DNA of 60,303 bases, counting the filler, from Sphacelaria rigidula (taxonomy: Eukaryota), in the NCBI GenBank assembly GCA_964200075.2. It is 10 parts of 10 records of this genome, joined end to end, with 100 filler letters (N's around TTAATTAATTAA, not from the genome) between each part and the next. Parts side by side here need not be neighbours in the genome. Positions count along the whole stretch, not along the records: positions 6,042 to 11,982 come from CAXNAA020023319.1; 9 more parts are not named here. The stretch is one strand, 5' to 3'. The notes under the pieces are model-generated. The model did not search any database. It saw nothing but the letters and a program-made list of their open reading frames with translations, and had not been told where the DNA came from. Shown here piece by piece: positions 2,672-48,105 of this stretch; positions within the stretch are counted from its first letter, which is position 1, and every line of letters begins with the position of its first letter. The translations under genes were made by a program, and so were the position numbers.

Positions 2672-4763
2672 TCAAAGCGAGGCGTGGACGTCGTGGGTGT
2701 GGTCGATGTTGCGCTGGAGACCGCGGCGAAGTCCTTTGGACTTGAGGCGCTGGAGACACCAGGATCCGCGGGGTGCAGATGGCCTGGTGGTGTAAAGTGC
2801 TGGCCGAAGCTTGAGCTGTATGGGTCCAGGATCATCGATGAAGCGCACGATATATGTGTCGGCCGACACCAGGTTAGCGGAGTGGGTCTGATCCAACCAC
2901 CAAAGGCTGTCGCTGCCTTTGAACCAAAGGGTAGCTGCCCTTGGACAGGAGTTGCTGGTTCGCAAAGAGCTTCGTCTTACAAGTCTTGGAGGGTACAAGT
3001 TCGTAACCATCGGCGACAAAGCGTAGTCCCTGGTTGCGGTGAAGTTCGCGGGCTGCTGCGCCACGGCGCATGTTGCGATATTTCTTGTTGTGAGCAAGAT
3101 GCTGATGTTGGGATTGCGTCCAGTAAAGGAGAATTGCACGACGGTGCAATTGCAGGTCGGATTCGCGTTCCCAAGACGCTCTCCGAAGACCGTGCCAGTG
3201 TGTCTTATACATGACAGCGATCTTGCCTCCTCGACCACGGGTTATCTGGTGGCCGGAAATGGAGGACACAGCCAACCGAAGGGGCTGTTCCGTCACGTCG
3301 TCGGCTGTAACGTGGTAGGGCGGGGACTTAGTCGAGTAGCTGTTGAGAACGTACTGTGTGAGTCCGGCCGGCAGGTACTTGGGCATGTCGCTTGTATCAT
3401 GCGGGTTCGTGCAGGGTTTGCATCTGTGTACGGAGACGCGGGGCTTGGTGTCTTTGCCCTGGAAGTCGTGAGGCAAGTCGAGATAGAGCAGTTTGTCACC
3501 AACGGGTTTTCTATCCGGTAATGATGACGATGGTCCGACTGTCGGGATCTTGAATGGTCCTGTCGAATTGAGGGACAATTTTGTCTTCAAAATTGTTTCG
3601 TTGGCTACCTTGCTGGTGCCTTGGCGGATGGTCGACAATCTGTTGTTGATCCAAACCCAATCACCAACTTTCCAGTTAGGGCGTTTGTGCATGAGGTTGT
3701 AGAGAGCAGTGTTAGATCTCTCCAGGCACGAGGCATTGATAGTGTGTTGTTCGCGCACGAGGGTGAACGCTTTGCGTTGTCGTGCATGTGCGAGCTCGTT
3801 GTAGGATATCTGATCCTGATCCAATCCTTGGTGACCGTCGAGCGTGTGTCGCTCGAACACGGTGATAGGCAGCCGAGGGTAGCGTCCAAGATGGAGTTCG
3901 TTCGGAGAAAGGACTGTGGCGGCATTAACCGAGTTGTTGTAGGACAACATGATGTGCGCGAGATGTAGGTCCCAGTCATTTTGGCGGTCATTGACAACCA
4001 TAGAGAGCATCTGGGCCATAGTGTGATTAACTCTTTCGGTACCACCGTTACCGTTTGGGTGGTAGGCGCTCGTGGCAATTTTGCGGATGCCCAGGAGCTT
4101 GTAAGGCTCATCCGAGAGGTCTGACCAAAATTGCTGACTATTGTCTGAAAGTAGTCGCTTCGGGCAGCCGTAGTGCTTAATATAATCATGGACCAGTATG
4201 TCGGCCGTTCCGGCGGCAGTGAAATCTGCGGCGGTTACCGCGTACATGGACGCGTGGTGGCTGAAGCGGTCAGTGAAGAGGAAGATATAGGTATTGCCGC
4301 GACCTGTGGTCGGGAGAGGGCTAAAGTAGTCAAATGACACAAGGTGGCCGGGCTCGTCGGGGAGTCCCATAGAGATCACGGGCCAGCGTACTGTCTGTCG
4401 TGAAGTTTTTCGGGCTTGGCATTTAAAGCATCGCCGAATCCAAAATCGGGTGGAAACTTCCACGCCAACCCACCAATAGAAGCGTTCCAAGAGCGCGAGG
4501 GAGCGGGTGACACCAAGGTGGCATGACAAGCCTGTATGGCAGCCTTTCATGACCCAGGGGCGCATTAATAATGGCACATATATGCGCGTTGGTTCGTCAT
4601 TGAGTAGTCGAGCGGTGCGTCCCGTAGTTGAGGCGGCAATTGCGCCTGCCAAGGGCGTGGGCCGACGTACGGGTAGTTGCACGCCTTCATCCGTAGTAAA
4701 AAGGGTGCCTTTACGCACGAGCTCGTATACGTCAGAAATAACTGGCGGTGGCAGTGTTCCCAC
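2672..4763 (-). pseudogene. Gypsy integrase: HHCC, DDE core, chromodomain, frameshifted C-terminal extension
   Basis: HHCC (CHTGLSCHLG...CFKC). D,D,E in SFDYF, SDNSQQF and GGTERVN. Chromodomain AVSSISGHQ...YKTHWHGLRRASWERESDL at ~3118-3275. Reading continues in ORF 2672..3238 after a 1-nt shift near 2930. Confidence 0.9.
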
Positions 4764-5941
4764 CGGGGCCAGAAGTGTGGACGGAAAAGGGACTGGACAG
4801 TCAAGCTATAAGTACCAGATGGCTGCGCGACATAGCGGTTCTGCGTTTTGTTCACGAGCCCAATCACGGTGGGAGTAGCTGGCGAGAAACTCGCGTAGTT
4901 GGCCTTCCGCTGGCGAGCCGACCAAACATAGTAGGGCAGGCGGCGGGGGAATAGGCGACGGGGCAGAAATGCCGACGTCAATCTCTGTTCCGGGAGCTGG
5001 AGACGAGTCGTCAGTTCCGTGCTCGGGGGCAGGAGATGTTTGCGGCGCCATTATAGGCGGCGGGGTATCAGTGCGCGGCGAAAACCTTTCGCAGCGCGTG
5101 GCGCACGGTGCAGAAGTTTTTGCGGAGCTTTGCGTGTTGGTCCGTGGAACTTGTGCTGGGTGGCTCATAGAGGTTGAAGGTGTTGTTGGTGGCGGCGGGG
5201 CACTCGGTGTGGTGCGGGCGGCGGACCGGGAGCGCGTGTTGTCGGAGTTAAGGTGGGTGACTGGAGGTGTCACAGCGAAGAGTTTGGCGCGAGTACCGAA
5301 AGTGCGAAAATCGACAAAATCGGGGGTAGTGGGCTTTAACCCACCCAAGACGGCGTCTCATGGTAGAGGGCGAGGTCCTCCCATATGCATACCTGTTTCC
5401 GGGTACTGGAGGTCGAGGGCGTAAACGGGCGTTGAAAAACGTCGGATCGCGTAAATTCCGGGTTCATCGGGTTCCGTTAAACGGCAAGCCGGGCTGGAAT
5501 CTGCGGCCGTAGGCGGCAAAGGCAGGCAGGAAAGAAGATCCGCGTTCTCGTTGGTTTTGCCTGGACGGTGCTTAATGGTATACTGGTATGCTGTTAGAAA
5601 TTCCAACCATCGTTGTACACGAGGGTTGTGTTCACCAAACTTGGCGAGTTGTTTAAGTGCTCCGTGATCCGTATAGATCTCGAAGGGCATGGGAAACAGA
5701 TATTGTCGAAGGCGCTTAATGGCCCAAGTGATTACTCCGCCTTCTAGTTCCAGCGGGCTCCAATCAATTGGCCTCGTTTGGCAGGGTAGCGCGGCTGATA
5801 CAAAAGATGGGTCGGACAGAGCCATCAACCTGAGGTTGATTCAAAACTCCTCCAAAACCATTTGTGCTGGACACTTTCTACGATACCCCCCCCCCCAAAA
5901 CCAGCTAAAAGTGTCACGAAAAAAATGGCCATACAGCGCCT

Positions 5942-6041
5942 NNNNNNNNNNNNNNNNNNNNNNNNNNNNNNNNNNNNNNNNNNNNTTAATTAATTAANNN
6001 NNNNNNNNNNNNNNNNNNNNNNNNNNNNNNNNNNNNNNNNN
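5942..6041. other. Artificial contig linker N44-TTAATTAATTAA-N44 (first of nine)
   Basis: Identical linkers at 5942, 11983, 18024, 24065, 30105, 36145, 42185, 48225 and 54265. The 12-mer places stops in all six frames. Confidence 0.98.
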
Positions 6042-6236
6042 CGGATTGGGTCAGCACTCCCGCACCGCGTCAACTCACGTCACACAAATCCAGTCGACTA
6101 CTTTGTTTACTTACGTTATCACTCTTTTCAAGGTGGAAATCATATATTACGAACAAATACCCAACGCATCGGGAATCGAACCCGTTCTCTCCATCCTAAT
6201 GGCGACAGTCAGGCCATTACACCACCGGGGCACGGC
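6042..6236 (-). mobile_element. tRNA-derived SINE family A (5' part)
   Basis: Head GCCCCGGTGGTGTAATGG (A box) ... GGGTTCGATTCCC (B box) with no closing acceptor stem. Homologous copy at 23892-24064 (+); downstream part at ~16450-16575. Confidence 0.75.
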
Positions 6237-6492
6237 ATAGGATTGTCGAAACTTACTGCAGATAAACAGGCAAACTTCGGTGGCTGTACCTGGTGTTGAA
6301 CCCACCAGTTTTTATCTCGGGTTTACTTTTTACATGCAAGACATTTCTGGTTCACGCATCGACCCGAGGAACTCGTCGTGAAATCGACCCTTCGGCAGAT
6401 TCTCCTGCCGAAACGGGGTGGGATGACCATGAGGAGGAGTCTCCGTCGAAAATGATTCGGACACAGGCGAACACCACCGGCAGCAATTTATA

Positions 6493-6850
6493 GCTGGTCG
6501 CCCCGGTGGCTCGAAATCTTCTGACGGTTGGGTCGCGGATTCAAATCTCGGTGCTGTCAGTCACACGATCTGGGATTTTTCTCGCACATATGCCTAACAG
6601 TGGAGAGCGACAATGTCGTGGGTACACAAAATTCGACTTCACAGTCGAAGAGGGAAAGGGATCGCCGAACCCCTCTCGCGATAAAAAAAGGGCAAGCACC
6701 GCAGAAGGAAGGTGGGGAACTAAAACAAATAAAATAAAATAAACTTCTGTGTTGGCCTTCCCCCTATGTGACCCCGGCTGGTGCGCCCGCATATGCCGAA
6801 AGCTGTAGACTGGCGCCCTGGATAGATGGGGTGACCACACACACTCACAC
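6493..6850 (+). mobile_element. tRNA-derived SINE family B with CA-rich tail
   Basis: gccccggtggctc head (internal deletion here), cagtcacacgatctgggattttt body, gtagactggcg 3' motif, cacacacac tail. Copies at 28838-29196 (-) and 48801-49164 (+). Confidence 0.8.
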
Positions 6851-6952
6851 ATGATCACAACGATAACGACAACAATGATAACGACAGTAACCCTGCTACA
6901 ACTACTACTACCACAACAACAACACACCAACGCAAACAACACAGGAACATAC

Positions 6953-9919
6953 GTTGAACATGACAGCCGGGGCATGGGGGTTTCTCTTGGCCGACTCCCT
7001 GAACATGTCGTGAAGGCAGATGGTGTCCGGGTAGTACTGAGTGGCAGAGTTCCACTTCTCGACGAGCAGTACGGACTCATCTCGGCTCTTTTGCGCATCA
7101 TCGGCGAGGACACGATCGATCGCCTGTTATTTTTTCGTGTTCATTTGGAGATCACAAGAAAAATAGCAGGGGTTGACAGAAGAAAGCAGGCAGGAGGACG
7201 GACTGTGGTCACATAGTAGCAGCGAACGGGTTGGATAACTAAAAGACAAGTCGGCTGCATACTATGTATTACACGCATCCAAAACTCACAGTTTGATTCC
7301 AGCTTCGCTTGGATACGAGCAGTTCATCACATACTAGGCGGGCGAGATTCTCAGCGAAGCCCGATGGACATTGACACTACTTCCAGCAGGTTACCTGGGA
7401 ATTCCGTTTCGGCAATCTGGGACGGTAACTGAGTGGTATTTCATCATGCTCCTGAAAAACGTACTTTCAAAAAACGCAGTTTGGCCGCAGTTCTTCACCA
7501 CACCAGGAAATCTAACTCAAACGTGACCTCATGAGAGTCCTGTGGTAGCTTGTTAACCCTTCGACCGCGAGGGTAGGTCACCTGCTGAAATAGCATCAAC
7601 TTTCACTTGAAAAACGTATGCATGATCCAGATGGACTACTCGCCGCCATCTAAGGGTTAACCCTTCGACTGCATTGCGCGCAGTGCATTTGCATATTATG
7701 CACACTTTTTCAACTGAAATGGATGCCAATTCAGCAGGTGACCTAACCTCGCGGTCAAAGGGTCAGGGTTCTCTTTTTGCGGGGCTGATATGCAAAGAAA
7801 TGTATTGAAAAGGCGTGTAATCCGTTTCTTCTTTTTTTCGGTCGGCGGATGGTGTACCCGCGAGCAAACAGTTTATTTGTTCCGTCTTGTATCAAGCACC
7901 TTGAGAATCCCGGAGTTTGTCTCGCCGTCCGAGGATGCCTGGAATGGCATGGCGTCGACGCTTACGTTGCCCAGTCCATTCCACTTTTCGACTTCGACTG
8001 GAGTGGGAAACAGATAGAAAGAATAATAATGAGGGGGGGGGGGACGAGAGCCATGCCACCGTAGGATTCATTGGTGTGATGGAGAATGACACATTTCATT
8101 TGGCGCGTTCTCGTGGAGGTAAACCGTCAAGTTGCCGACATTGATGTTGCTGTTTCTCACACTAGCCCTTTCCCAGGAATCGGAAGCACTCGCGGTCACA
8201 AACCACAGTACAAAAAGACAGAATACAAGGAAAACGTGAATAATGCGGTAAGCCCACGAACAGCAAACAACGGCGCAGCCAAGGGCGGGGCTCTAGAAAC
8301 ATGTCAGGCGAAAATGTCGATTGCTGAATACCAACCGATATCAAGACTGGGATGCGTACTCGGTTCTGCCTCAGGCCAGGTCTCCAAGTGCCTCGGCAAG
8401 GTCTCCGAGTGTCTCGGCAAATATCTCGTCGAAAGCTGCCCTCGCCCCCGTGCCGGCACCGCGCCATGGATCAGGAGGAATCCACCAACCGTACAGTGGC
8501 AAACAGTGCTCATTCATGTTGGCGTGTTCACTATGGCACGTGGTGACTACGTGCGATCATGTTATGGTGTTGAAAAACGGCATACACGTGTGCTCAGTGT
8601 GTACTAACATTTACCCTGCCGTGTTTCAGGGCCGTTAGTAGTTTCTAGCCTGGCGTACCTGTATATAACACCCTGTCCTAATTGTTCCACCTCTTCGCGT
8701 TCCTTCTCGGCCCAGTTCTCGACTTTTCTCCTGGGAGTGTTTCCGTTTCAATAACTCTGGGTACATCTATCTAGTGACCACAGCTGGACTTGTAGGGAAT
8801 CGGCTATCGCACAATAGTCAATCCCAACAGTCCACCCATCGATCCAATAACAGGAACGCGCTTCGCACCTCAACACAAACTCGTCAATCATTAAGATGAC
8901 GTGGACGCACAAGACAGCACTGAAACACACACACACAAAACCACACAGGCGGAAGTAGACACGATAGATGCGCAAAACACGATGGCACCACTGCAGGTAA
9001 ACAAATACCAAGGACGGTATGACGGTTTGACACACGGATATGCAGAAGTCGTTACTATCGCCCCCGAGCTCATCATCCCATCAAAATATTAACCCTTTTC
9101 CAAGTTGGAAAGACCACGGTGAAATTTCCGGACGAATCAGTGCCATTGATTGATTGATTGATTGATTATCTCACATTAGCTAATTGCAACAATCCAGCCC
9201 GTAGTCAGGAGCAGCAAAAATAGAACAGAAGAATAAAAAAATACAAGAAGAAGAGAAACGAACAGAAAAACGACAGAAGCAACGGCCAAGCAACGGCCTC
9301 AGAAAGAAAAGAAGGGAAGCAGCGATAATAACAAAAACCACGACCACCACCACCACCACCAACACCAACACCAACAAACAACAACAACAGTGACAACGAA
9401 TATTTCATCGTCACCATCACGGCATATTGCGGTGAAAAGTGAAGTTACTGCTGTTCGTGTTTTCAACTGATATATCACAAGAGTACATATACACAGCGTA
9501 CCGTCATGGGCAGAGTCATCCTCCAGCCTGAGAAAGGACACCGGGCACGTGAGGGGGGAACCGGCGCTCGTCTTCGTTTCCACGAACACTTGCAGCCCAT
9601 CTAGGAGGGCGAGTGCATCGCGCTCCGCCTCGGTCATGTTCGCTTTGTCGGCGGCGAGACCCTGTGGCACACGCACGACAAAAGCATGTGGCAATAAAAC
9701 ACAAGTGAACAAAAGCCACACCAGACATCAAGAGTGAGAAACATCGGTAGGAAAAAGACAAGAGACGCGCGATAAGAAGGCGCATTACGTGGATTGGTGA
9801 AAAATCTTACACTGCCCAGCCCAGAAGCAAACTTCTTGGGAATCACCCTACTCGTTGCAGGGACTGCCTCCACGCCGAAGCCTGGCCCTTGCAACTCCGT
9901 GCACCCCGCGACAAACACA
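6953..9919 (-). CDS. NRPS-like gene, internal exons: thioesterase-like domain followed by the start of an adenylation domain
   Basis: Four AG/GT-bounded, phase-compatible exons: 9919-9811, 9661-9502, 7997-7900, 7123-6953. Spliced peptide VFVAGC...PLTCPVSFLRLEDDSAHDVEVEKW...LLVEKWNSATQYYPDTICLHDMFRESAKRNPHAPAVMFN. The first part resembles type II thioesterase motifs; the last resembles the NRPS A-domain N-terminus. Confidence 0.8.
7553..7766. mobile_element. Two tandem piggyBac-like MITEs sharing a TTAA, inside an intron
   Basis: TTAA-CCCTTCGACCGCGAG...AAGGG-TTAA-CCCTTCGAC...CTCGCGGTCAAAGGG. Confidence 0.75.
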
Positions 9920-10632
9920 CTGTACTTGCGTTCCATACATTATTTCACGGTCAGGACGAATCAGAGTTCATACGAGACTCCCCATGAATTGACAGGATTC
10001 TACCTGTATAAATTATTGGTCCCGCTGAGTCGAGGGTGGATAACACAAATGCAATGCAGGGATCTTGCGCGCATTACAGCTGAGAGAAAAGTACGCGTGA
10101 TTCATGGCCCATGAAATGACAGGATTCAACCTCATGAAATTGTTGGTCCCGAATTAACCCGAAGGTGGGAAAAATTCACGAGCGCTTACCTCGAACGACT
10201 AGGTCAAGCAAGTTGTACATGCCGTTCCCACCTCATGATGGTGAGAAATGCACAGCATGTACAATCGGTTCACTCAAATTGCAGTACAGGGGATGAATAT
10301 GTGCTCATGATATACCCCGTATTCAAGGAAGGTCGGAAGCAGGAACTATTGACATGTACGGCACGACTCACGAGCTGAAAAGCTGTAAAAATTACACATG
10401 GTGTACGAATAGTATGATTTATTTGTTGGAATGATGAATATGAGTTGAATCACGATTTGATTTGTCCTACCCGTGCATTATTTAGGGCCACCTACTGCGC
10501 AACGGAGCGCCGAAGCTCGTGGGAGTGGGGCGGCGCGTGCACTACGCCAAGTTGACGGAGGGTTTAGTGGGTTGGACCCCCACACTGCCTTGAGCAAAGC
10601 TGTCACACTCTCAACAATCGATTACATTGTCG

Positions 10633-10712
10633 AAAAGTGTGCTGCGTACAGTATCGAGTACTGCGTCTATTGAAACAGCGGCAGTGGTCGATACTGTACG
10701 CAGTACACTTTT
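10633..10712. repeat. Hairpin / mini inverted repeat, ~32-bp arms
   Basis: aaaagtgtgctgcgtacagtatcgagtactgc pairs with gcagtggtcgatactgtacgcagtacactttt. Confidence 0.75.
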
Positions 10713-11030
10713 TTACAGGGTAATTCCTTGTCCAGGGCGTAGAGCCGTTCGAACGCCCGAGGTGCTTACCCCATGTGACTGACACACAGTGCTCTAGCCG
10801 AGCCTCCGAGTAATCGGCACATAAGCCCGTTCGCGGGGTCAGTGTTGGGATGAGGTTTCCTCCTTCCTCCAAGAAAAAAAAGAGAAGAAAAACGTGGGTT
10901 CGGTCACGGCGTGATAAATAGCGAACCAACCACGCGACGCGCACCGCGGTGAACAGGATAACTTCTCAGTAACGACATGATGTAACCATGACACGTATGT
11001 CACAACAGCACATGCAACTACAGTGGAGAA

Positions 11031-11340
11031 GGGTGTACTCATAATGCTAGCCGTAGTCACGTGACCATTGACCTCGCATCTCCACAAAGCCCGGTCGGAG
11101 CACGCCGGGCTTTTGTCATACCAGGCTCGCACTCAAAGACCAAGCGCAAAGCGCCGCAATGTGTCGGCGAGTCGCACGAAGGGTGGGCTGCGTCCTGCTA
11201 AGATTGCTCGGCCCGAAGCGTACCGATTATCTTGCATCTGGATGACAACCTTCATTGAGTTGCTTCATTTGCTGGTATCGCCACTAGCAGAGACAGCCAC
11301 GGCTTATACACTGCCTCAGTGGTGTCTCACCACTGGTGAG
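11031..11340 (+). mobile_element. High-copy interspersed repeat family C (GGGGTGTACTCATGATC head)
   Basis: gaccattgacctcgcatc...cggagcacgccggg motif also at ~15975, 36245 (-), 42112, 52600, 53865 (-); head also at 56322 (-). Confidence 0.75.
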
Positions 11341-11499
11341 AAAAGGGGGGACGCGGGGGAGTAGGTCCTAATGTAGCACGGTCAACAGTGCGGTAAAAAT
11401 GTCTGACGGTAATATGTACAAAAAAAACTACCCCTTTCAGAGCACGCGAGGTCCCGATGTAGTGCTGTCAAAATGCAGTGTTATACAATCTAGAGGTTT

Positions 11500-11982
11500 C
11501 AGTGAGTCATCTCAAGCTCAGGACCGCCTCCAGAAGGCATGGGATCTCCGGGAAAGTGTATGGAAAAAACAACGAGCAAACCCCAAAGACACTGCCCTGA
11601 AGAAGGCGCTGAAGGTGACGGACAAGGCGTTTAAGCGGGCGAAGAATGCTGAGCTGCAGAATTTCGTCCACGAGTTCACAGTCCGAACCGCGGACTTTGT
11701 TCGCAAGAAGGATCAAGCAGGACTGTACCAGCATATCAAGTCCTTGGAACTGGAAGGGAAGAAGCAGAGCGACTCAACCTACGTCCGGAGCGCGACTGGC
11801 GAGCTGTTGCGGGACAAGCAAGCTATCCTGCAACGATGGAAGGAATGGTTTGACACACTGCTGAACGCAACCTCACCTACAATCGATCACTCTGTCATCG
11901 ATCTCATCGAACAGCTGCCAGAGCACACATCGCTCGCGGCGGAGCCCTCGATGGCAGAAGTGAAGCAAGCGGTGGGCAAACT
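11500..11982 (+). mobile_element. RTE-like LINE ORF2 fragment (between endonuclease and RT); 5'-truncated, cut by the contig end
   Basis: ...YVRSATGELLRDKQAILQRWKEWFDTLLN...EPSMAEVKQAV matches the conserved pre-RT segment of non-LTR elements. Confidence 0.85.
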
Positions 11983-12829
11983 NNNNNNNNNNNNNNNNNN
12001 NNNNNNNNNNNNNNNNNNNNNNNNNNTTAATTAATTAANNNNNNNNNNNNNNNNNNNNNNNNNNNNNNNNNNNNNNNNNNNNGGAGTGCTGTTCAAAGAG
12101 ATGCTCTACAGAGCCTGCGCACCAGAGACTGAATAACGCTAGATAAAAATATCCAACAACGACAAGAAGAACAAAAAAGGACAACCTGACTGTAATCCAT
12201 AAGACCATATTTTCTGGCAACGAATCTCGATATTTTTAGAACCCGATTTCTTCATGGCAATTTACGGGTGTTGCGCGTATATGTTTGTATATATTTGGAT
12301 TTTGGTTGTTTCGTTTATTTTTCGTTTTTGAACAAGGGGAAGACAATATATCGGGAGGACTAAAATTCGCAAACTTGAAATCGGGGGGACCGTCTTATGG
12401 TATCACAGATTTGTGAAACAGTTCCACACGTCGGACGGATCAGCTCATGACAGATCCGGGTCAGCTCATCTGGGGCATAGGTCATGATCCGTCCGAGGTG
12501 AGCTGTCACCCGTGCACGCTTGTCCGATGCTGATCCGTAGGATCCACTTGACCCGTACATATTTGCCGAGCGACGGGCTGTACGACCCGCTTCACACAAA
12601 CACTTTCGTGTATGACTTATCTGCAGACCTGTGTCATCTGTACATCACATACAATAGTTGTCATTTGCATCACTCGGGTCAGGCAAGCGCAGTAGCTTGT
12701 CGTCGACCCGCGCGATTTGAATCTCGTGTACACCAAAAGCTACCCATTACCTGTGGAATCCGAAGCTAGTATACAAGAAACCCTCTCCCGCACCCGTAAG
12801 ATCCGGATCAAGTATGCAAGAAAACAGTA

Positions 12830-24164: not shown

Positions 24165-27100
24165 CGACCGCATGTGAGCGCACACCATCAAGCGCGTTTG
24201 TAGAGCCTTATCATCCGACGGCATCCACAAAACATCGCTACGGCCAACACGCACGCGAAACAAACCATCGTCAGCCAAGGTAGCTGGACCGCAAGTCGTA
24301 GGAAAAGAATGAACGCCGTCGCCGACTGCTTTGCGCTGCGCGGTACGAATGACATCTAACAAGGGCAGCGAAACATCGGCATCACACGGGCTGTACACGG
24401 CAACAGAACGAACAGGCACGGTAGGAACCTTCACCCAGCGAGATAACAAATCTCCCCAACAATTGCGCTCTCCAGGAATGTGTTCAATAGCATACCGGTA
24501 TTGGCCCAGTACTCCTTTCCAATTTTCAAGCCGTGGTGTCATGGCCTTCGTCACCGACGTGACACACTCTTCGGGATTAAAAATGTACTTGAGATTGCGA
24601 TGATCGGTGAAAATGCGGACACCACCCCATATCAAGTGCTCTAGCCTTCGAAATGCATTATTATCGCGAAACCTTCCTTGTCCACTGTCGCCCACCGCAA
24701 CTGTGAACCAGTAAGACTACCACTCAGAAAAGCCAACGGTTCGTGTGACATGTTTCGAGCGCAATGCCACTACTAAACTCTGCGACAGGCACTTGCGTCA
24801 AAAAACTACCCCAGTGAAACTCCGAAGCATCCGGAAACATGAGAACAACGCACCCTGGACGAGGATGATACAGCGGCATCGCTTGCGCCACCAAATCTTG
24901 TGCAGCACGCCATGCCCGCAAACGATCCTCTGTCCAAGCATCCTCCGAAATGGTACGATTACGCGCCACCCGGTTGGTCCTACGCGGAGCCCCGGCCACG
25001 AGTTGTTCCAGAAATACTCGAAGCGGAGCAACTACTTCCGCCATGCGCGGGAGCGAAGTCCGCAACCATTTCGCCGCCTGCAGAAATTGCATCAGCTCAC
25101 TAGCGTTTTGAGGACGTCGCATATTGCTCAAACCTTGAACACGAACGGGATCATGCGAAACAGTACCCTTAGAGTACACCTTACCACACCAAACCACTTC
25201 GCGTGCGAAAAAAGTACACTTATGCGCAGCGACGAACAGACCAACACTCCCCAAGCGGCCAAGAATTTCGTCAAGCAAAGCTAACAGTGTTTTTTCGGTC
25301 ACAGCATAATAGAAAACGTCATCCACCCACACATTACAACCTAGACCTCGCAAAATGTCGGTCAGCACACCTTGGAAATACGCCGTGGCGTTCAACACGC
25401 CTGCGGGACACGAGTAAGCGTAAACAAACCGTCCTGCGTGACGATCGTGAAGATTTTCTGAGCCTCCGGCGCCAGAGGCATCTGCCAATACCCCTGTAGC
25501 ATGTCCAAGTTGCCGAAGCATTGGGCTCCCAGCAACTCCCGCATGTCTTCTTGGCTTGGCATCACCCCCGGAGACTGTTCCACTTACGCGTTCACCGTCT
25601 GATATTCTCTGACCAAACGAAATGTGTCCCTTTTCGGCACCGCCATCGCCGGACTCGCCCACACAGCCTGGATGTTCCTCACCACAAACCGAACACCACC
25701 AAAGCTGCGATGCATGAGGCAAGCCACCCGGTCTTCACCGGATCGTACCGTCTGGGCTTGACCTTCACCGCCTTTGCCTGGGGCTTGAGCTGCACCCTTA
25801 AAGGTTTAACGCGCGCTGGCGGATCACCACGCAGCGCACGGCGAGATGTATCTACGCGACGAGCCAGAATATCGCGCAGACAATGGGCGCCATCGGTGCT
25901 CACGCCCTTCTGCTCGGCCTGCCGCACACTATCCTCAAGCGCACGCTCCCGTGCCCCTCTCTCCTCTGCTGGGTCCATGAACATATCAGGCCCCCGATCG
26001 ACCAAGCGCTCTACTGCTTCATCAGCAGGAGCCTCCTCCTCACAGGCGCTTTGGAATGACCGTATGGATACGATCACACGCCTTGCAGCAAGGAAATTGG
26101 GGTTTTCCACGCCAGTTTGCAACGGCACAGCACATGGACGTAACTTCTCCAACGTCTGCGGATACATTCCCAGCTCCTTGATTGTCGCCATCCCAAAGAG
26201 AACCACGTTGTCCCTACCAAGCATGTCAGCGAAAGTAATAGGCTGCAACTGCACCGCCCCCCGCGGCGTGCGCACGCTAACAGCAATTGGCACTGTTTTG
26301 TGTGTAACCGTCAAGGGAGCACCCGTGGTGGTCTGCGCCGTTTGCGGTCCGTTTTCAAACGGAATCCGAAGCTGAGCGCCGCCAAACTGCGAAGACATTT
26401 GCTCAAGCAACCCCACACCAATCGACGTGAGAGCGGACCCAGAATCTAGAATAACGCTGGCCATAAACGAACCTACAGAACCAGGCAAGGCTAAATCTGC
26501 ACGTAAGCATTCACCCTTGCGATCGACAGGTACTACGCCTGCCGAAGAACCCTGTTCTGTTTCAATAGTCACCTGACGCCAGGGCTGCCCTCCAGCACTT
26601 GGCATCGATAGCTGCGAATCGTCGGTCCAACCAGACCACGTCGCCGACTATGCAGACGGCGCTGTAACCGCCGTCGCAGCCGTAGGGAATGCGCCAGACA
26701 CGAGTCCTGCCTGGCCGATGGGTTGCGAGCTATTCGCTCCAGCACTCCCCACCGAAGTATTTCTGTTTCCCACGTACACTGTCCGCCCCGCTACGGACGA
26801 ACCAGAAAATCCAGAGTCACCACCTGATGACGTAGTGGAAGGACAGCAGCGGAGAAACCAGCATCCGTCGCCGATTGCTTGCTGCCGCGGCCGCCGCGCC
26901 CGCGTCCCTGATTGGCACGGCCCCGTCCACCGTGACGACCGCCCCGGGATCCTGATAAATCTAGTGCATTGCCCTGTGCAGCGCCTTGAGCGCGAGGCTT
27001 GGGGCAGTCCTTGATCATATGTCCGGTGTCGCCGCAGTTATAACACGTGCGAGTGGACGACTCTCGCGAAGACGGCTGCTGTTTTTGTTGCTGTTGCTGT

Positions 27101-45519: not shown

Positions 45520-48105
45520 TTACAGTTTTGCCTTCCTTTTCCTGGGTTCTACTTCCTTGGCTGCCTTTTTTTTCGTGAAATCTACCAGCGGCCCGATCAC
45601 CTGTGAGAGGTTCGGAGTAAATTTCCTCACAAAATGTATCGTGCCTAACACCAACCGTAATTGCTTGATATTGTTTGGCGTGGGTAAATTCAATATGATA
45701 TTTACGCGGTCTTCCCCAATTTTGATCCCGTCAGCGGACAAAGTGTAGCCGAGGTACTTGACCTCCTTAGGTCCAAACTTTACTTTGGAGGTTTTGAGAG
45801 TAAGACCTGTATTTTTCAGTGCTTTAAACATGTCTTCCGGTAGAGTCAGGTGGCGTCCCCATGTGGAGGAACAACAGGCGATTAAATCATTTGTTACACT
45901 GACAAACCGCTCTTGGGTCCCAAGTGTGAGAACATAAGAGCCATTCTTTGCGAAACAATTATCGAGATGCCAAGCCAAACGGCAGTCGATTGAACATCTA
46001 TTTACCTTCTCTCCGTAACGAAGGCCGTTTTTTTTCTCCTCCTCCGCTATTGGCGTTTGATGGAACGCGTTCTCTACATCGAAGGCAGAGATAAATGTTT
46101 TGCCTCACACGCGGCTATTTGGCTACCCCCAAAAATACCTCCGGGGGGATGCGCTGCCCTCCAGAGGCAAAAAAAGTCTCCGGAGACCTTCAATCCCTCT
46201 CGGAGGAAACCAAACACTACCGCCCTGGAGGGCCGCGCACCCCTCCGGAGAAATTTGGGGGTAGCGAAATGCCTCCGGAGGGATGCGCGGCCCTCCAGAA
46301 GCCGACACAAGCTTCCGGAGGCCTTCAATCGTTTTGGAGGAAGCCAAAAAATAACTCCTCTGGAGGGCCGTGCACCCCTCCGGAGGCGTTTAGTTCCTAG
46401 GGGGGCTCAGAAAGTTGACCGCCCTGGAGAAATTTTGGGGATAGCCAAATGGACGCGTGTGCTACCACCGTGTCTATGTATCTGTCCAAATTAGTCATGA
46501 GCCATGACTCAGAGTGGATCTATAGTCGACACAAAATCGGGTTGCACCATCATTTTTAGCTACAATAGTCACCGCAGAGCCCCATGGGCTGGCTCTTTGT
46601 TCTATTATCCCGTCTCGCTCCACCTCATCTTCGCATTTATCGATGACTTCTTGGATCCTGGGGTTGGCCCGGTACGGGGCCCCATTGCTGGACTTCGTGC
46701 CCGGAACTAGGAGAAATGTTGCTTTCCCGATCGTGCAACACCCTAGCTTCTGCGGTGATAGTGAGAACACTGACCTGCATTTTGTGCATAAATCGAGCAC
46801 TTGGCTCTTTTGGTTTCAGAAAAGGTGATATTTTGAAAAGCATTTTCGAGCGCTGTCGTCAGTTCTTCTCGTACGTCAGTATTTTGTTGCTCGACTTGTG
46901 ACATTTCACTGACATTTTTCTTCGGCTTGCTTCTCTCAACTTGTGACATGTATCCTAAAAGCAAACTTCGTGGGAGTGGGACATGCCGATTCGACGGATT
47001 TTTTACTTGCATCATAGCTGTTTTGTTTACCACTGACCGAATGCAGGCTGTGCGTGCTACAACGAGGCGACTAAGAGCATTCGGTACTTCTTTTGTATTG
47101 GACGTCTTCACCCCTTACAACTCGTGGCCCAATGACCGCTTCAGTCGTAAGTGTTGGCGTCTCATTTCGACGAGAAGAGCCATCTCACTTCGAGGTGGGA
47201 CCGAGCACCTCTTTGAGAGGTACACTGGTACATTTTCAGCCGATGCTACCCATATGACAGAACAATAATCATTTTCCGAACACGTCGGATAAACGTTTCT
47301 GTCTCTTCTTCTGTGAGTAGCGATGAGGCGGACTAATGAACTACGGAACGTCAAAGTTTCTGCTTGCCGATCGAGGATTCCTCCAAATACGCTCATTACT
47401 GAGTTCTCTATCAGCATAAGATTCGGACCGAAATCCCTGAGGACAAATGCGTCTACGGGCATGTTTATGTCACCTAGCGTGAGATCAAAACGACTAAATC
47501 TCTTTGTCGTGATTGGTGACCCGTCGGCGATCCTTACATCAAAATAACGCCGTGGGACGCATTGAATGTCCTTTTCGCTCAAAGTGGGGTGTGAACGAAT
47601 GAATTTCAAGCTGATGGCCGGAAGGTCTGAAACAGTATCAATGGTGATCGGTGGGACTTCCGTTCCATTTACTCTGGCTGGAACCTGCACCCTCGCTGAT
47701 GCAGGTCGCAACGTTGCCGGGTTCCTGGGGTACCGGTCTAACGAAGACATGAAGAAAGACTCGAATTCTGTCGAGCTTGGGGGGCAAAACGTTTGATGTG
47801 TGCTTCTCGTTATTTCGCAAAGACGTCTTGCTTACAGAAGCAGCTTGGGTGGCGATGCCCAGGTGGCGATACTTCTTAGTAAACATCTTATTTTGACCTA
47901 TTTTACTCCGAACTTACCTATGTGTACTAGCCTTCGTAGCGTAGCCCCTTCCACATGTACTCTCTTCCATCACCTCACAGAACAAGCTACGTCCTGGCTG
48001 GCAAATCGCACACGTTTCTTGCCCTTTTTTATGTTTCGCCAGAGGGTCGGCGTCTATTTCACAGTGCGCAATCTTTCCCCTCGATCTCTTGTACTCTCGG
48101 GTCAC
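45520..48105 (-). mobile_element. Decayed Ty3/Gypsy pol (protease and RT), interrupted by an insertion
   Basis: Protease-like ITIDTVSDL; RT start PYRANP...SPWGSAVTIVAKNDGATRFCVDYR; RT end KFGPKEVKYLGY...FVRKFTPNLS; YxDD motif degenerate. Confidence 0.85.
46106..46461. mobile_element. CACTA/CMC-like MITE nested in the Gypsy RT region
   Basis: Termini CACACGCG...CGCGTGTG extending to ~30-bp imperfect TIRs, 2-bp CT on both flanks, many internal cctccggag repeats. Confidence 0.65.

Follow-up and report, generated by a model that had tools for sequence, protein, structure and literature searches.

Can a thioesterase-like domain that stands directly in front of an adenylation (A) domain belong to an expressed gene, and if so, what would such a protein make? 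The question is raised by a locus of the brown alga Sphacelaria rigidula (GenBank assembly GCA_964200075.2), contained in a stretch of 60,303 nucleotides that is referred to here as the window. The window is made up of ten pieces of 5939-5941 bases with spacers of the form N44-TTAATTAATTAA-N44 between them; the spacers lie at 5942-6041, at 11983-12082 and then every ~6040 bases, and adjoining pieces need not be contiguous in the genome. The gene fragment lies wholly inside piece 2 (6042-11982; CAXNAA020023319.1), and the trustworthy context is ~5.9 kb only. Three exons of this piece, termed B, C, and D, are very likely consecutive internal exons of an expressed nuclear gene for a nonribosomal peptide synthetase (NRPS)-like carboxylate reductase with the order TE*-A-T(-T)-R, where T is a carrier domain, R is a thioester reductase, and TE* is the thioesterase (TE)-like domain. 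A search with the exon D peptide matched 2 proteins among 10 candidates, P0002 and P0001. The latter is a junk model on a short contig; the former is a full-length relative of 1471 amino acids, used here as the reference for domain order, fold, and substrate pocket.

Exons and splicing on the minus strand

All three exons lie on the minus strand. Exon B (9502..9661) is 160 nt long, or 53 codons plus 1 nt, is bordered by an AG acceptor and a GTACGC donor, and encodes GLAADKANMTEAERD...PLTCPVSFLRLEDDSAHD, which covers the TE-like domain from just past the site of a missing lid through the Asp-bearing strand. Exon C (7900..7997; 98 nt) encodes (V)EVEKWNGLGNVSVDAMPFQASSDGETNSGILK; this is the C-terminal portion of the TE-like domain and has a conserved Trp, with Ala in the catalytic His column. 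Exon D (6953..7123; 171 nt, 57 codons) encodes AIDRVLADDAQKSRDESVLLVEKWNSATQYYPDTICLHDMFRESAKRNPHAPAVMFN, in which the helix linking TE to A is followed by the beginning of the adenylation domain. The intervening B/C intron (7998..9501) and C/D intron (7124..7899) are 1504 nt and 776 nt long, both of the GT..AG type. An upstream intron of at least 2.3 kb occupies 9662..11982, to the end of piece 2, and the start of a downstream intron, with the donor GTATGT at 6952-6947, occupies 6042..6952 and likewise runs to the end of the piece.

Piece 2 was compared with three RNA-like sequencing runs, X6, X7, and X8, all from one study, and with the DNA-like run X1. Each RNA-like run contains one spliced contig, of 3591, 3562, and 3727 letters, respectively, that aligns to 6952-7122, 7899-7997, and 9502-9664 with 0 differing letters. 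The joints 7122>7899 (cut +1; 776 nt skipped) and 7997>9502 (1504 nt skipped) are present in 3/3 RNA-like runs, and both skipped parts end in CT..AC on the plus strand, which corresponds to GT..AG on the minus strand. Once the tool-reported joint ambiguity of 1-3 bases is allowed for, the exons are 9661-9502, 7997-7900, and 7123-6953. Neither joint occurs in X1 (0/1), which covers the region as unspliced pieces. Word depth is ~134-154 for the spliced contigs as opposed to ~2-6 for unspliced contigs across the introns. The exon structure and the splicing are direct observations. Beyond 9502-9664 each spliced contig has 427-592 extra letters, and beyond 6952 there are 2702 extra letters; the gene therefore continues outside piece 2 in both directions. 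The 427-592 nt beyond exon B are about what the ~150 codons of P0002 in that part would need, and a further domain upstream is therefore not expected.

The spliced B-C-D product is an open frame of 143 amino acids, and the peptide is 55.6% identical to residues 148-289 of P0002 over 142 amino acids (E 3e-50). In tblastn, the exons are collinear with residues 130-288 of P0002: exon B matches residues 130-196 (46% identity, E 2.8e-11), exon C aligns with residues 201-231, and exon D matches residues 232-288 (70% identity, E 1.1e-19). A family profile, built from 23 N-terminal regions and scored on the 235 open reading frames (ORFs) of piece 2, gives E 7.7e-19 for the exon D ORF and E 0.41 for the exon B ORF. 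Neither tblastn nor the family profile found exons for the first ~150 residues, the GxSxG position included, in 9662-11982, and no downstream A-domain exons were found by tblastn with P0002 in the whole window at a meaningful E-value or by the family profile in piece 2. A decaying pseudogene or an assembly chimera could be suspected from introns rich in high-copy repeats and from a window that is artificially pieced together; however, B, C, and D all lie within one piece, their joined frame is open, they are spliced exactly with 0 other letters relative to the contigs, and the contigs continue 2.7 kb further, which makes this explanation extremely unlikely.

An earlier note on this DNA, made from the sequence alone, had described four exons spliced in frame, the first of them at 9811..9919 (minus strand) and encoding VFVAGC..., which was read as a type II thioesterase motif. 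When 9919-9811 is joined to B, C, and D, 538 nt give one stop-free frame of 179 amino acids with AG/GT at all boundaries, and 0.44% of random 537-nt stretches of piece 2 are stop-free in a given frame. The frame, the canonical borders, and two of the three junctions, present in all three RNA-like runs, are upheld, but the first exon is unsupported: it has no match to P0002 in tblastn and is outside the 15 best of the 235 family-profile ORFs, and with it the VFVAGC motif falls. The spliced contigs match the genome as far as 9664, three bases past the exon B acceptor, as would be expected if the true upstream exon ended in CAG; 9919-9811 ends in AGT. Over 9811-9919 no spliced-contig cover was seen, an uncovered part counting as no evidence by the rule of the tool; in each of X6-X8, bin 9624-9822 has a depth that corresponds to 41 bases at contig depth, and the mean for bin 9823-10021 in X8 is 12.1. 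An isoform in which 9919-9811 serves as an alternative or rarely used exon would agree with its canonical AG and GTAAGA sites, its preservation of the frame, and the similarity of VFVAGC to the (L/V)xVSG strand of intact relatives. Such an isoform is nevertheless very unlikely, as the stretch is unscored with both the family profile and P0002, the exon B boundary has the same position in P0002 and in the fragments P0025 and P0117 with a different sequence preceding it, and the letters next to 9661 in the dominant transcript are incompatible with 9919-9811. Most likely, 9811-9919 is a chance open stretch inside the upstream intron.

Domain order and the thioesterase-like domain

The Pfam order in P0002 is PF00975 at residues 36-136 (E 1.3e-15), AMP-binding at 273-634, AMP-binding_C, two PP-binding stretches, and NAD_binding_4 at 1100-1347, by which the protein is predicted to be TE-A-T-T-R. 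The PF00975 match (58.7 bits, cut-off 26.4) spans profile positions 2-100 of 226 in a region upstream of the exons in the window, and the part encoded in the window aligns to the C-terminal half of the TE via P0002 and 20 intact relatives. Solved NRPS A domains start matching P0002 at residues ~241-255, inside exon D; exons B-D thus take in the second half of the TE-like domain and the linker and end ~35-45 residues into the A domain. The junction of a thioesterase-like domain with the adenylation domain behind it, which the earlier note had claimed, is read directly in exons C-D, and in P0002 the TE is N-terminal. The note's proposed PLTCPVSFLRLEDD...W motif and start of the A domain also hold in the alignments, and its suggestion of an adenylating reductase is borne out by the Pfam order of P0002. 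Beyond exons B-D, the domain order of the window's own protein is predicted from relatives.

The A domain of P0002 has a PF00501 match of E 2.6e-58 and a TIGR01733 score of 273.6 bits, under the cut-off of 317.4, and matches the A domain of LgrA in the PDB at E 3e-115. Its reductase scores 304.8 bits against TIGR01746 (cut-off 213), matches MxaA at E 5e-69, and by eye retains the glycine-rich nucleotide motif and YxxxK. An upstream condensation domain is ruled out; P0002 begins with the TE, and hence neither a condensation nor a carrier domain precedes it. Carboxylic acid reductase (NF041592) is likewise rejected, with 172.3 bits for P0002 against a cut-off of 1300. As for the guess of a Lys2- or ATRR-like enzyme, Lys2 (TIGR03443) is excluded, with 388 bits against a cut-off of 1030.1 and a best stretch confined to the reductase part. 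ATRR-like is the better of the two because the pocket of the relatives matches that of ATRR, although the second reductase of ATRR is absent.

A full-length search returned 195 proteins at E <= 1e-50 among 8000 scored, of which 120 were listed. The matches listed include partial models with 62-63% identity from two Ectocarpus species, a Laminaria digitata fragment, Chrysoparadoxa australica (P0015) and Tribonema minus, ~20 oomycete proteins of ~1300 amino acids, that of Plasmopara halstedii among them, and a protein labelled Nk52 from the eukaryote database. They also include A-T-R proteins without a TE from diatoms and green algae, and ATRR-type proteins that end in a short-chain dehydrogenase/reductase (A-T-R-SDR) from molluscs, a starfish, a thraustochytrid, and a fungus. 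This range of relatives makes a brown alga or a close relative the most likely source of the DNA, and run X4, labelled an algae metagenome, contains 78% of the words of the stretch. With residues 1-300 of P0002 as the query, an exhaustive phmmer search gave 8035 matches at E <= 0.001. Full-length N-terminal PF00975 was found in 10 of the 11 matches scanned, and in nine of these ten the A and carrier domains come directly next, followed by a ketosynthase (KS) and further polyketide synthase (PKS) domains in seven, by a condensation (C) domain in one, and by nothing in one. The carrier and reductase were seen in relatives only, namely P0002, P0015, P0163, and P0164. There are two carrier domains in P0002 and in two Ectocarpus models and one in the oomycete proteins. 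A search of the ESM Atlas with P0002 returned generic bacterial A-T-R clusters only.

A quick IQ-TREE analysis (LG+G4, SH-aLRT support only) was made of 36 A domains, with two partial Ectocarpus rows left out. A clade of 33 rows with a support of 100 unites ATRR-type proteins, bacterial-type TE-A-T-x proteins, and eukaryotic (TE-)A-T-R proteins. Within it the eukaryotic (TE-)A-T-R rows group together as a single clade (SH-aLRT 97), the sister (93) of the bacterial-type TE-A-T-x proteins.

The public Ectocarpus models P0163 and P0164 start inside the A domain, and the Laminaria digitata model (P0045) is a fragment of 113 amino acids; short, poorly conserved TE* exons may explain such failures of automatic annotation. 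Among P0171, P0190, P0253, and P0189, some Phytophthora models fuse TE-A-T-R to biotin-carboxylase, ATP-grasp, and biotinyl domains, and one metagenomic protein joins TE-A-T-R to tetrahydrofolate dehydrogenase/cyclohydrolase domains. These fusions may be merged neighbours or may be real, and a folate link would fit one-carbon and betaine metabolism.

The catalytic residues of the TE-like domain were compared in an alignment of 23 family N-termini and the window peptide. GxSxG, GGxxD, and GxHF are kept in 20/20 relatives (11 eukaryote-type and 9 bacterial-type) from outside the group of brown algae, Xanthophyceae, and Chrysoparadoxa, for which PX is used here as a shorthand. In Tribonema only the Ser is retained (GHSIG). 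In Chrysoparadoxa the nucleophile motif reads GHGFG, with no alignable Asp or His, and in P0002 it reads GHELG, with ~27 lid residues missing and Glu in the His column. The window peptide begins just past the lid site, and the lid is missing in its protein too, judged from the alignment of exon B. Its PLTCPVSFLRLEDD and Trp are kept, and an Asp of RLEDD aligns with the catalytic Asp (GGxxD) in the family alignment; its His is lost, the column holding Ala (PFQA-SS), a loss observed directly in the window. Against 38 free-standing TEs, the Ser stands in 38/38 where P0002 has Glu109, and the His in 37/38 where P0002 has Glu220.

An AF2 model of residues 1-262 of P0002 has a pLDDT of 81.1 and a pTM of 0.80, and its best Foldseek matches are the type II thioesterases RifR (E 5.9e-14), then RedJ, BorB, ClbQ, and YbtT, with TM about 0.55-0.6. 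The sequence identity to the 38 free-standing TEs is 23-32%. The free-standing type II enzymes act in editing as separate proteins and have a lid and a Ser-Asp-His triad, whereas TE* is fused before an A domain and lacks these. The model and the alignments suggest that TE* keeps a type II thioesterase fold with degenerate catalytic machinery. The earlier proposal that the TE may be non-catalytic is thereby strengthened, given the Ala in the His column, to a probable loss of catalysis. TE* would be the relic of an originally active type-II-like thioesterase, which is still intact in the oomycete, other eukaryote-type, and bacterial-type relatives. The lid and the catalytic residues would have been lost in this lineage while the domain persisted, for which reason its role is probably structural or regulatory rather than hydrolytic.

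TE* could instead be a hydrolase or acyltransferase that still works through unusual residues, for example the elbow Glu and another base. In favour of this, the fold is kept, brown-algal fragments share the PLTCPVS strand and the Trp (over exon B, the window and P0117 are 67% identical), and an Asp is kept at or adjoining the catalytic column. However, the His column varies by member, being Ala in the window, Glu in P0002, and unalignable in Chrysoparadoxa and Tribonema; one member has Glu and another has Gly as the nucleophile, and the lid, which forms the substrate chamber, has been lost. Such scatter looks like relaxed catalytic constraint, and a still active TE* is judged unlikely.

Adenylation pocket, proposed chemistry, and known systems

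Pocket positions were read by motif and are given in PheA numbering. P0002, Chrysoparadoxa, Tribonema, four oomycetes, and three diatoms share the pocket V F W L W C L D (I/V/A), without an Asp at the amino-group-binding position, and Val replaces Asp at this alpha-amino position in all 33 rows of the clade with a support of 100. In a fungal A-T-R-SDR homologue, P0260, residues F206, W209, W275, and E309 occupy positions 236, 239, 299, and 330, and their spacing (3, 66, 34) equals that of F201, W204, W270, and E304 in A. nidulans ATRR. The corresponding cage positions of P0002 are F462, W465, W541, and D575. In ATRR, the cage of F, W, W, and an acidic residue is proposed for the trimethylammonium group of glycine betaine and is supported by substrate analogues, according to the available text of a preprint (10.1101/559534). 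The relatives of the window's protein carry the same F, W, W, and acidic residue, which are read in these relatives and not in the window.

Because the A domains of its relatives carry the aromatic-cage pocket of ATRR, the gene is read as that of a putative betaine-type carboxylate reductase. Its A domain would adenylate a small carboxylic acid rather than an ordinary alpha-amino acid, most likely a betaine-type acid such as glycine betaine. The acid would then be loaded as a thioester onto the carrier domain(s), and the C-terminal NAD(P)H-dependent thioester reductase would release an aldehyde, or an alcohol after a second reduction. A broader proposal is held more doubtfully: brown algae, PX relatives, oomycetes, and some diatoms might have in their (TE-)A-T-R proteins betaine-type (quaternary ammonium, perhaps sulfonium) carboxylate reductases that provide an ATP/NADPH route from glycine betaine or a related osmolyte to the aldehyde or alcohol (choline). 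The TE would once have been an editing hydrolase shared with bacterial TE-A-T-PKS lines, and in the brown-algal lineage a dead, retained pseudoenzyme module acting structurally on the A or T domains.

Several points weigh against this reading of the gene and its product. The window's own GxSxG, A core, carrier, and reductase lie outside it and are taken from a relative that is 55.6% identical over the shared part. No Pfam match at E <= 10 was obtained for the single exon ORFs (0/4); the other 6 of the ten minus-strand ORFs of the region gave 2 weak unrelated matches. The RNA status of runs X6-X9 is an automated guess, and no run is recorded as RNA. The catalytic Asp column is ambiguous: in the alignment with the free-standing TEs it is shifted by two and falls on Gly194 of P0002, which has Asp at 192 and 195. 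The tree covers A domains only and comes from a quick search, with several deep forks unresolved. The second reductase of ATRR is absent: adh_short/KR is missing from P0002, P0015, P0163, P0164, and the oomycete proteins and is present in P0243, P0245, and P0260. Finally, the diatom protein PtNRPS1, an A-T-R1-R2 enzyme of the ATRR type, is reported to reduce L-tryptophan to tryptophanol (PMC13194791, in its available text), and since it does so with similar pocket residues, the pocket alone cannot settle the substrate.

The last point leads to an alternative in which the architecture is the same and the substrate is some amino acid, aromatic or otherwise, from which an amino aldehyde or alcohol would be formed in the manner of PtNRPS1. 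The available text of that report counts PtNRPS1 homologues without R2 in Pseudo-nitzschia multistriata, Fragilariopsis, and Nitzschia (PMC13194791), and P0207 from P. multistriata groups with the window's family in the 97-supported clade and has a pocket identical at 8/9 positions read. On the other hand, the Val in place of Asp at the alpha-amino-binding position in 33/33 rows speaks against an amino acid, and F/W/W with an acidic residue form the cage for which substrate analogues showed binding of quaternary ammonium in ATRR (10.1101/559534, as far as the text is available). In the available text of PMC13194791, moreover, no glycine betaine test on PtNRPS1 is seen. An amino acid substrate is judged the less likely of the two.

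The gene encodes a variant of an enzyme type that has been noticed before yet is functionally uncharacterised. The protein PhalNRPS_3 of Plasmopara halstedii was described as an unusual monomodular TE-A-T-Red with an N-terminal TE, with Phytophthora homologues and a TE of unknown function, in the part of the report available (Sharma et al. 2015, PMC4594904). The architecture is accordingly not new, and the idea of an undescribed enzyme has to be given up. One 'Other(A)' gene each is recorded in Ectocarpus and Saccharina in the accessible text of O'Neill 2020 (PMC7073580). Our literature searches returned nothing on a degenerate TE in brown-algal TE-A-T-R proteins or on a link between oomycete NRPS_3 and ATRR; nor did they find anything in print on the decay of the brown-algal TE, the doubling of the carrier domain, or an ATRR-like pocket throughout the TE-A-T-R family.

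The oomycete NRPS_3 proteins resemble the window's family in the N-terminal PF00975 followed by A, T, and thioester reductase, in collinearity with a conserved TE-to-A linker ES..L(I/V)..WN....YP...CLHD(L/M)F, in a pocket identical at 8/9 positions read, and in membership of the same 97-supported clade. They differ in their TE, which keeps the Ser, Asp, His, and lid and is matched by the Pfam profile over positions 3-225 of 226, whereas in the window's lineage the His and the lid are gone, as is the Ser in P0002, and Pfam matches the first 100 positions only. Fungal ATRR (A-T-R1-R2; Hai, Huang and Tang 2019) shares a single-module A-T-R core, no Asp at the amino-group position, and the same F/W/W and acidic pocket positions, read in the relatives, and ATRR-type proteins are among the nearest named relatives in the matches listed (E 1e-139 to 1e-188). 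It differs in having no N-terminal TE and in its SDR-type R2 (betaine aldehyde to choline), absent in this family; the acidic residue is Asp here rather than Glu, and positions 301 and 322 differ. Diatom PtNRPS1 (Zhao et al. 2026, PMC13194791) is likewise a stramenopile NRPS-like reductase, and one of the diatom A-T-R proteins without R2 that are counted there as its homologues falls, on examination, in the window's clade. PtNRPS1 itself, which is outside our alignments and is compared by its description in the available text, differs in lacking a TE, in having R2, and in its reported substrate, an aromatic amino acid.

Uncharacterised bacterial hybrid NRPS-PKS lines with an N-terminal TE have been reported in more than 50 bacteria (2025, PMC12858407, available text). 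Their order, TE-A-T-KS-AT-KR-ACP (AT, acyltransferase; KR, ketoreductase; ACP, acyl carrier protein), is that of 'T-GCF-03' of Entotheonella and >50 other bacteria, and membership of the same family as our matches would follow from architecture only. The front end of the bacterial matches is collinear with P0002, with 35-39% identity over about 60% of its length, they have the same linker, and they form the sister group in the quick tree (93), with the related pocket V F W L x N D D V. They differ in that the TE is intact, a PKS module or C domain rather than a reductase follows the carrier, and the proteins are uncharacterised. The bacterial-type TE-A-T-KS or TE-A-T-C proteins P0052, P0056, P0062, P0085, P0107, P0113, and P0137 have this ATRR-like F/W pocket with an extra Asp at 322, which hints at a cationic, betaine-like starter unit for those hybrid lines.

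Glycine betaine and choline are major marine osmolytes and lipid precursors, and if the family reduces betaines, the metabolism of seaweeds and oomycetes would join that pool. Marine stramenopiles transcribe ATRR homologues, according to the available part of PMC9321204. The natural series from an intact through a partly to a fully degenerate TE permits testing of the purpose of an N-terminal TE in an adenylating reductase, a question left open in the available text of the 2015 oomycete paper (PMC4594904).

Repeats and retroelement remains

The C/D intron contains an inverted repeat that resembles a miniature inverted-repeat transposable element, with arms of 88 nt at 7556-7643 and 7676-7763 that are 72% complementary. 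Word depth is very high in bins 7435-7832 in all runs, and many contigs break at this repeat. Other very high-copy repeats, with a word depth of 10^4-10^6 in X1, lie at 6042-6837, at 9027-9225 in the B/C intron, and at 11017-11414. Some repeats have tRNA-like 3' ends by eye; an ARAGORN tRNA scan of piece 2 returned 0 genes. Trinucleotide microsatellites of the CAA/CAC type occur at 6855-6950, right after the exon D donor, and at 9320-9390 in the B/C intron, and a (GATT)n run lies near 9145-9165. Other pieces of the window contain retroelement remains, all on the minus strand, at 2877-4805, 5361-5840, 24727-25734, and 45523-46104; the domains at these four sites are integrase (PF17921, rve), reverse transcriptase-RNase H (PF17917), and two RVT_1 fragments.

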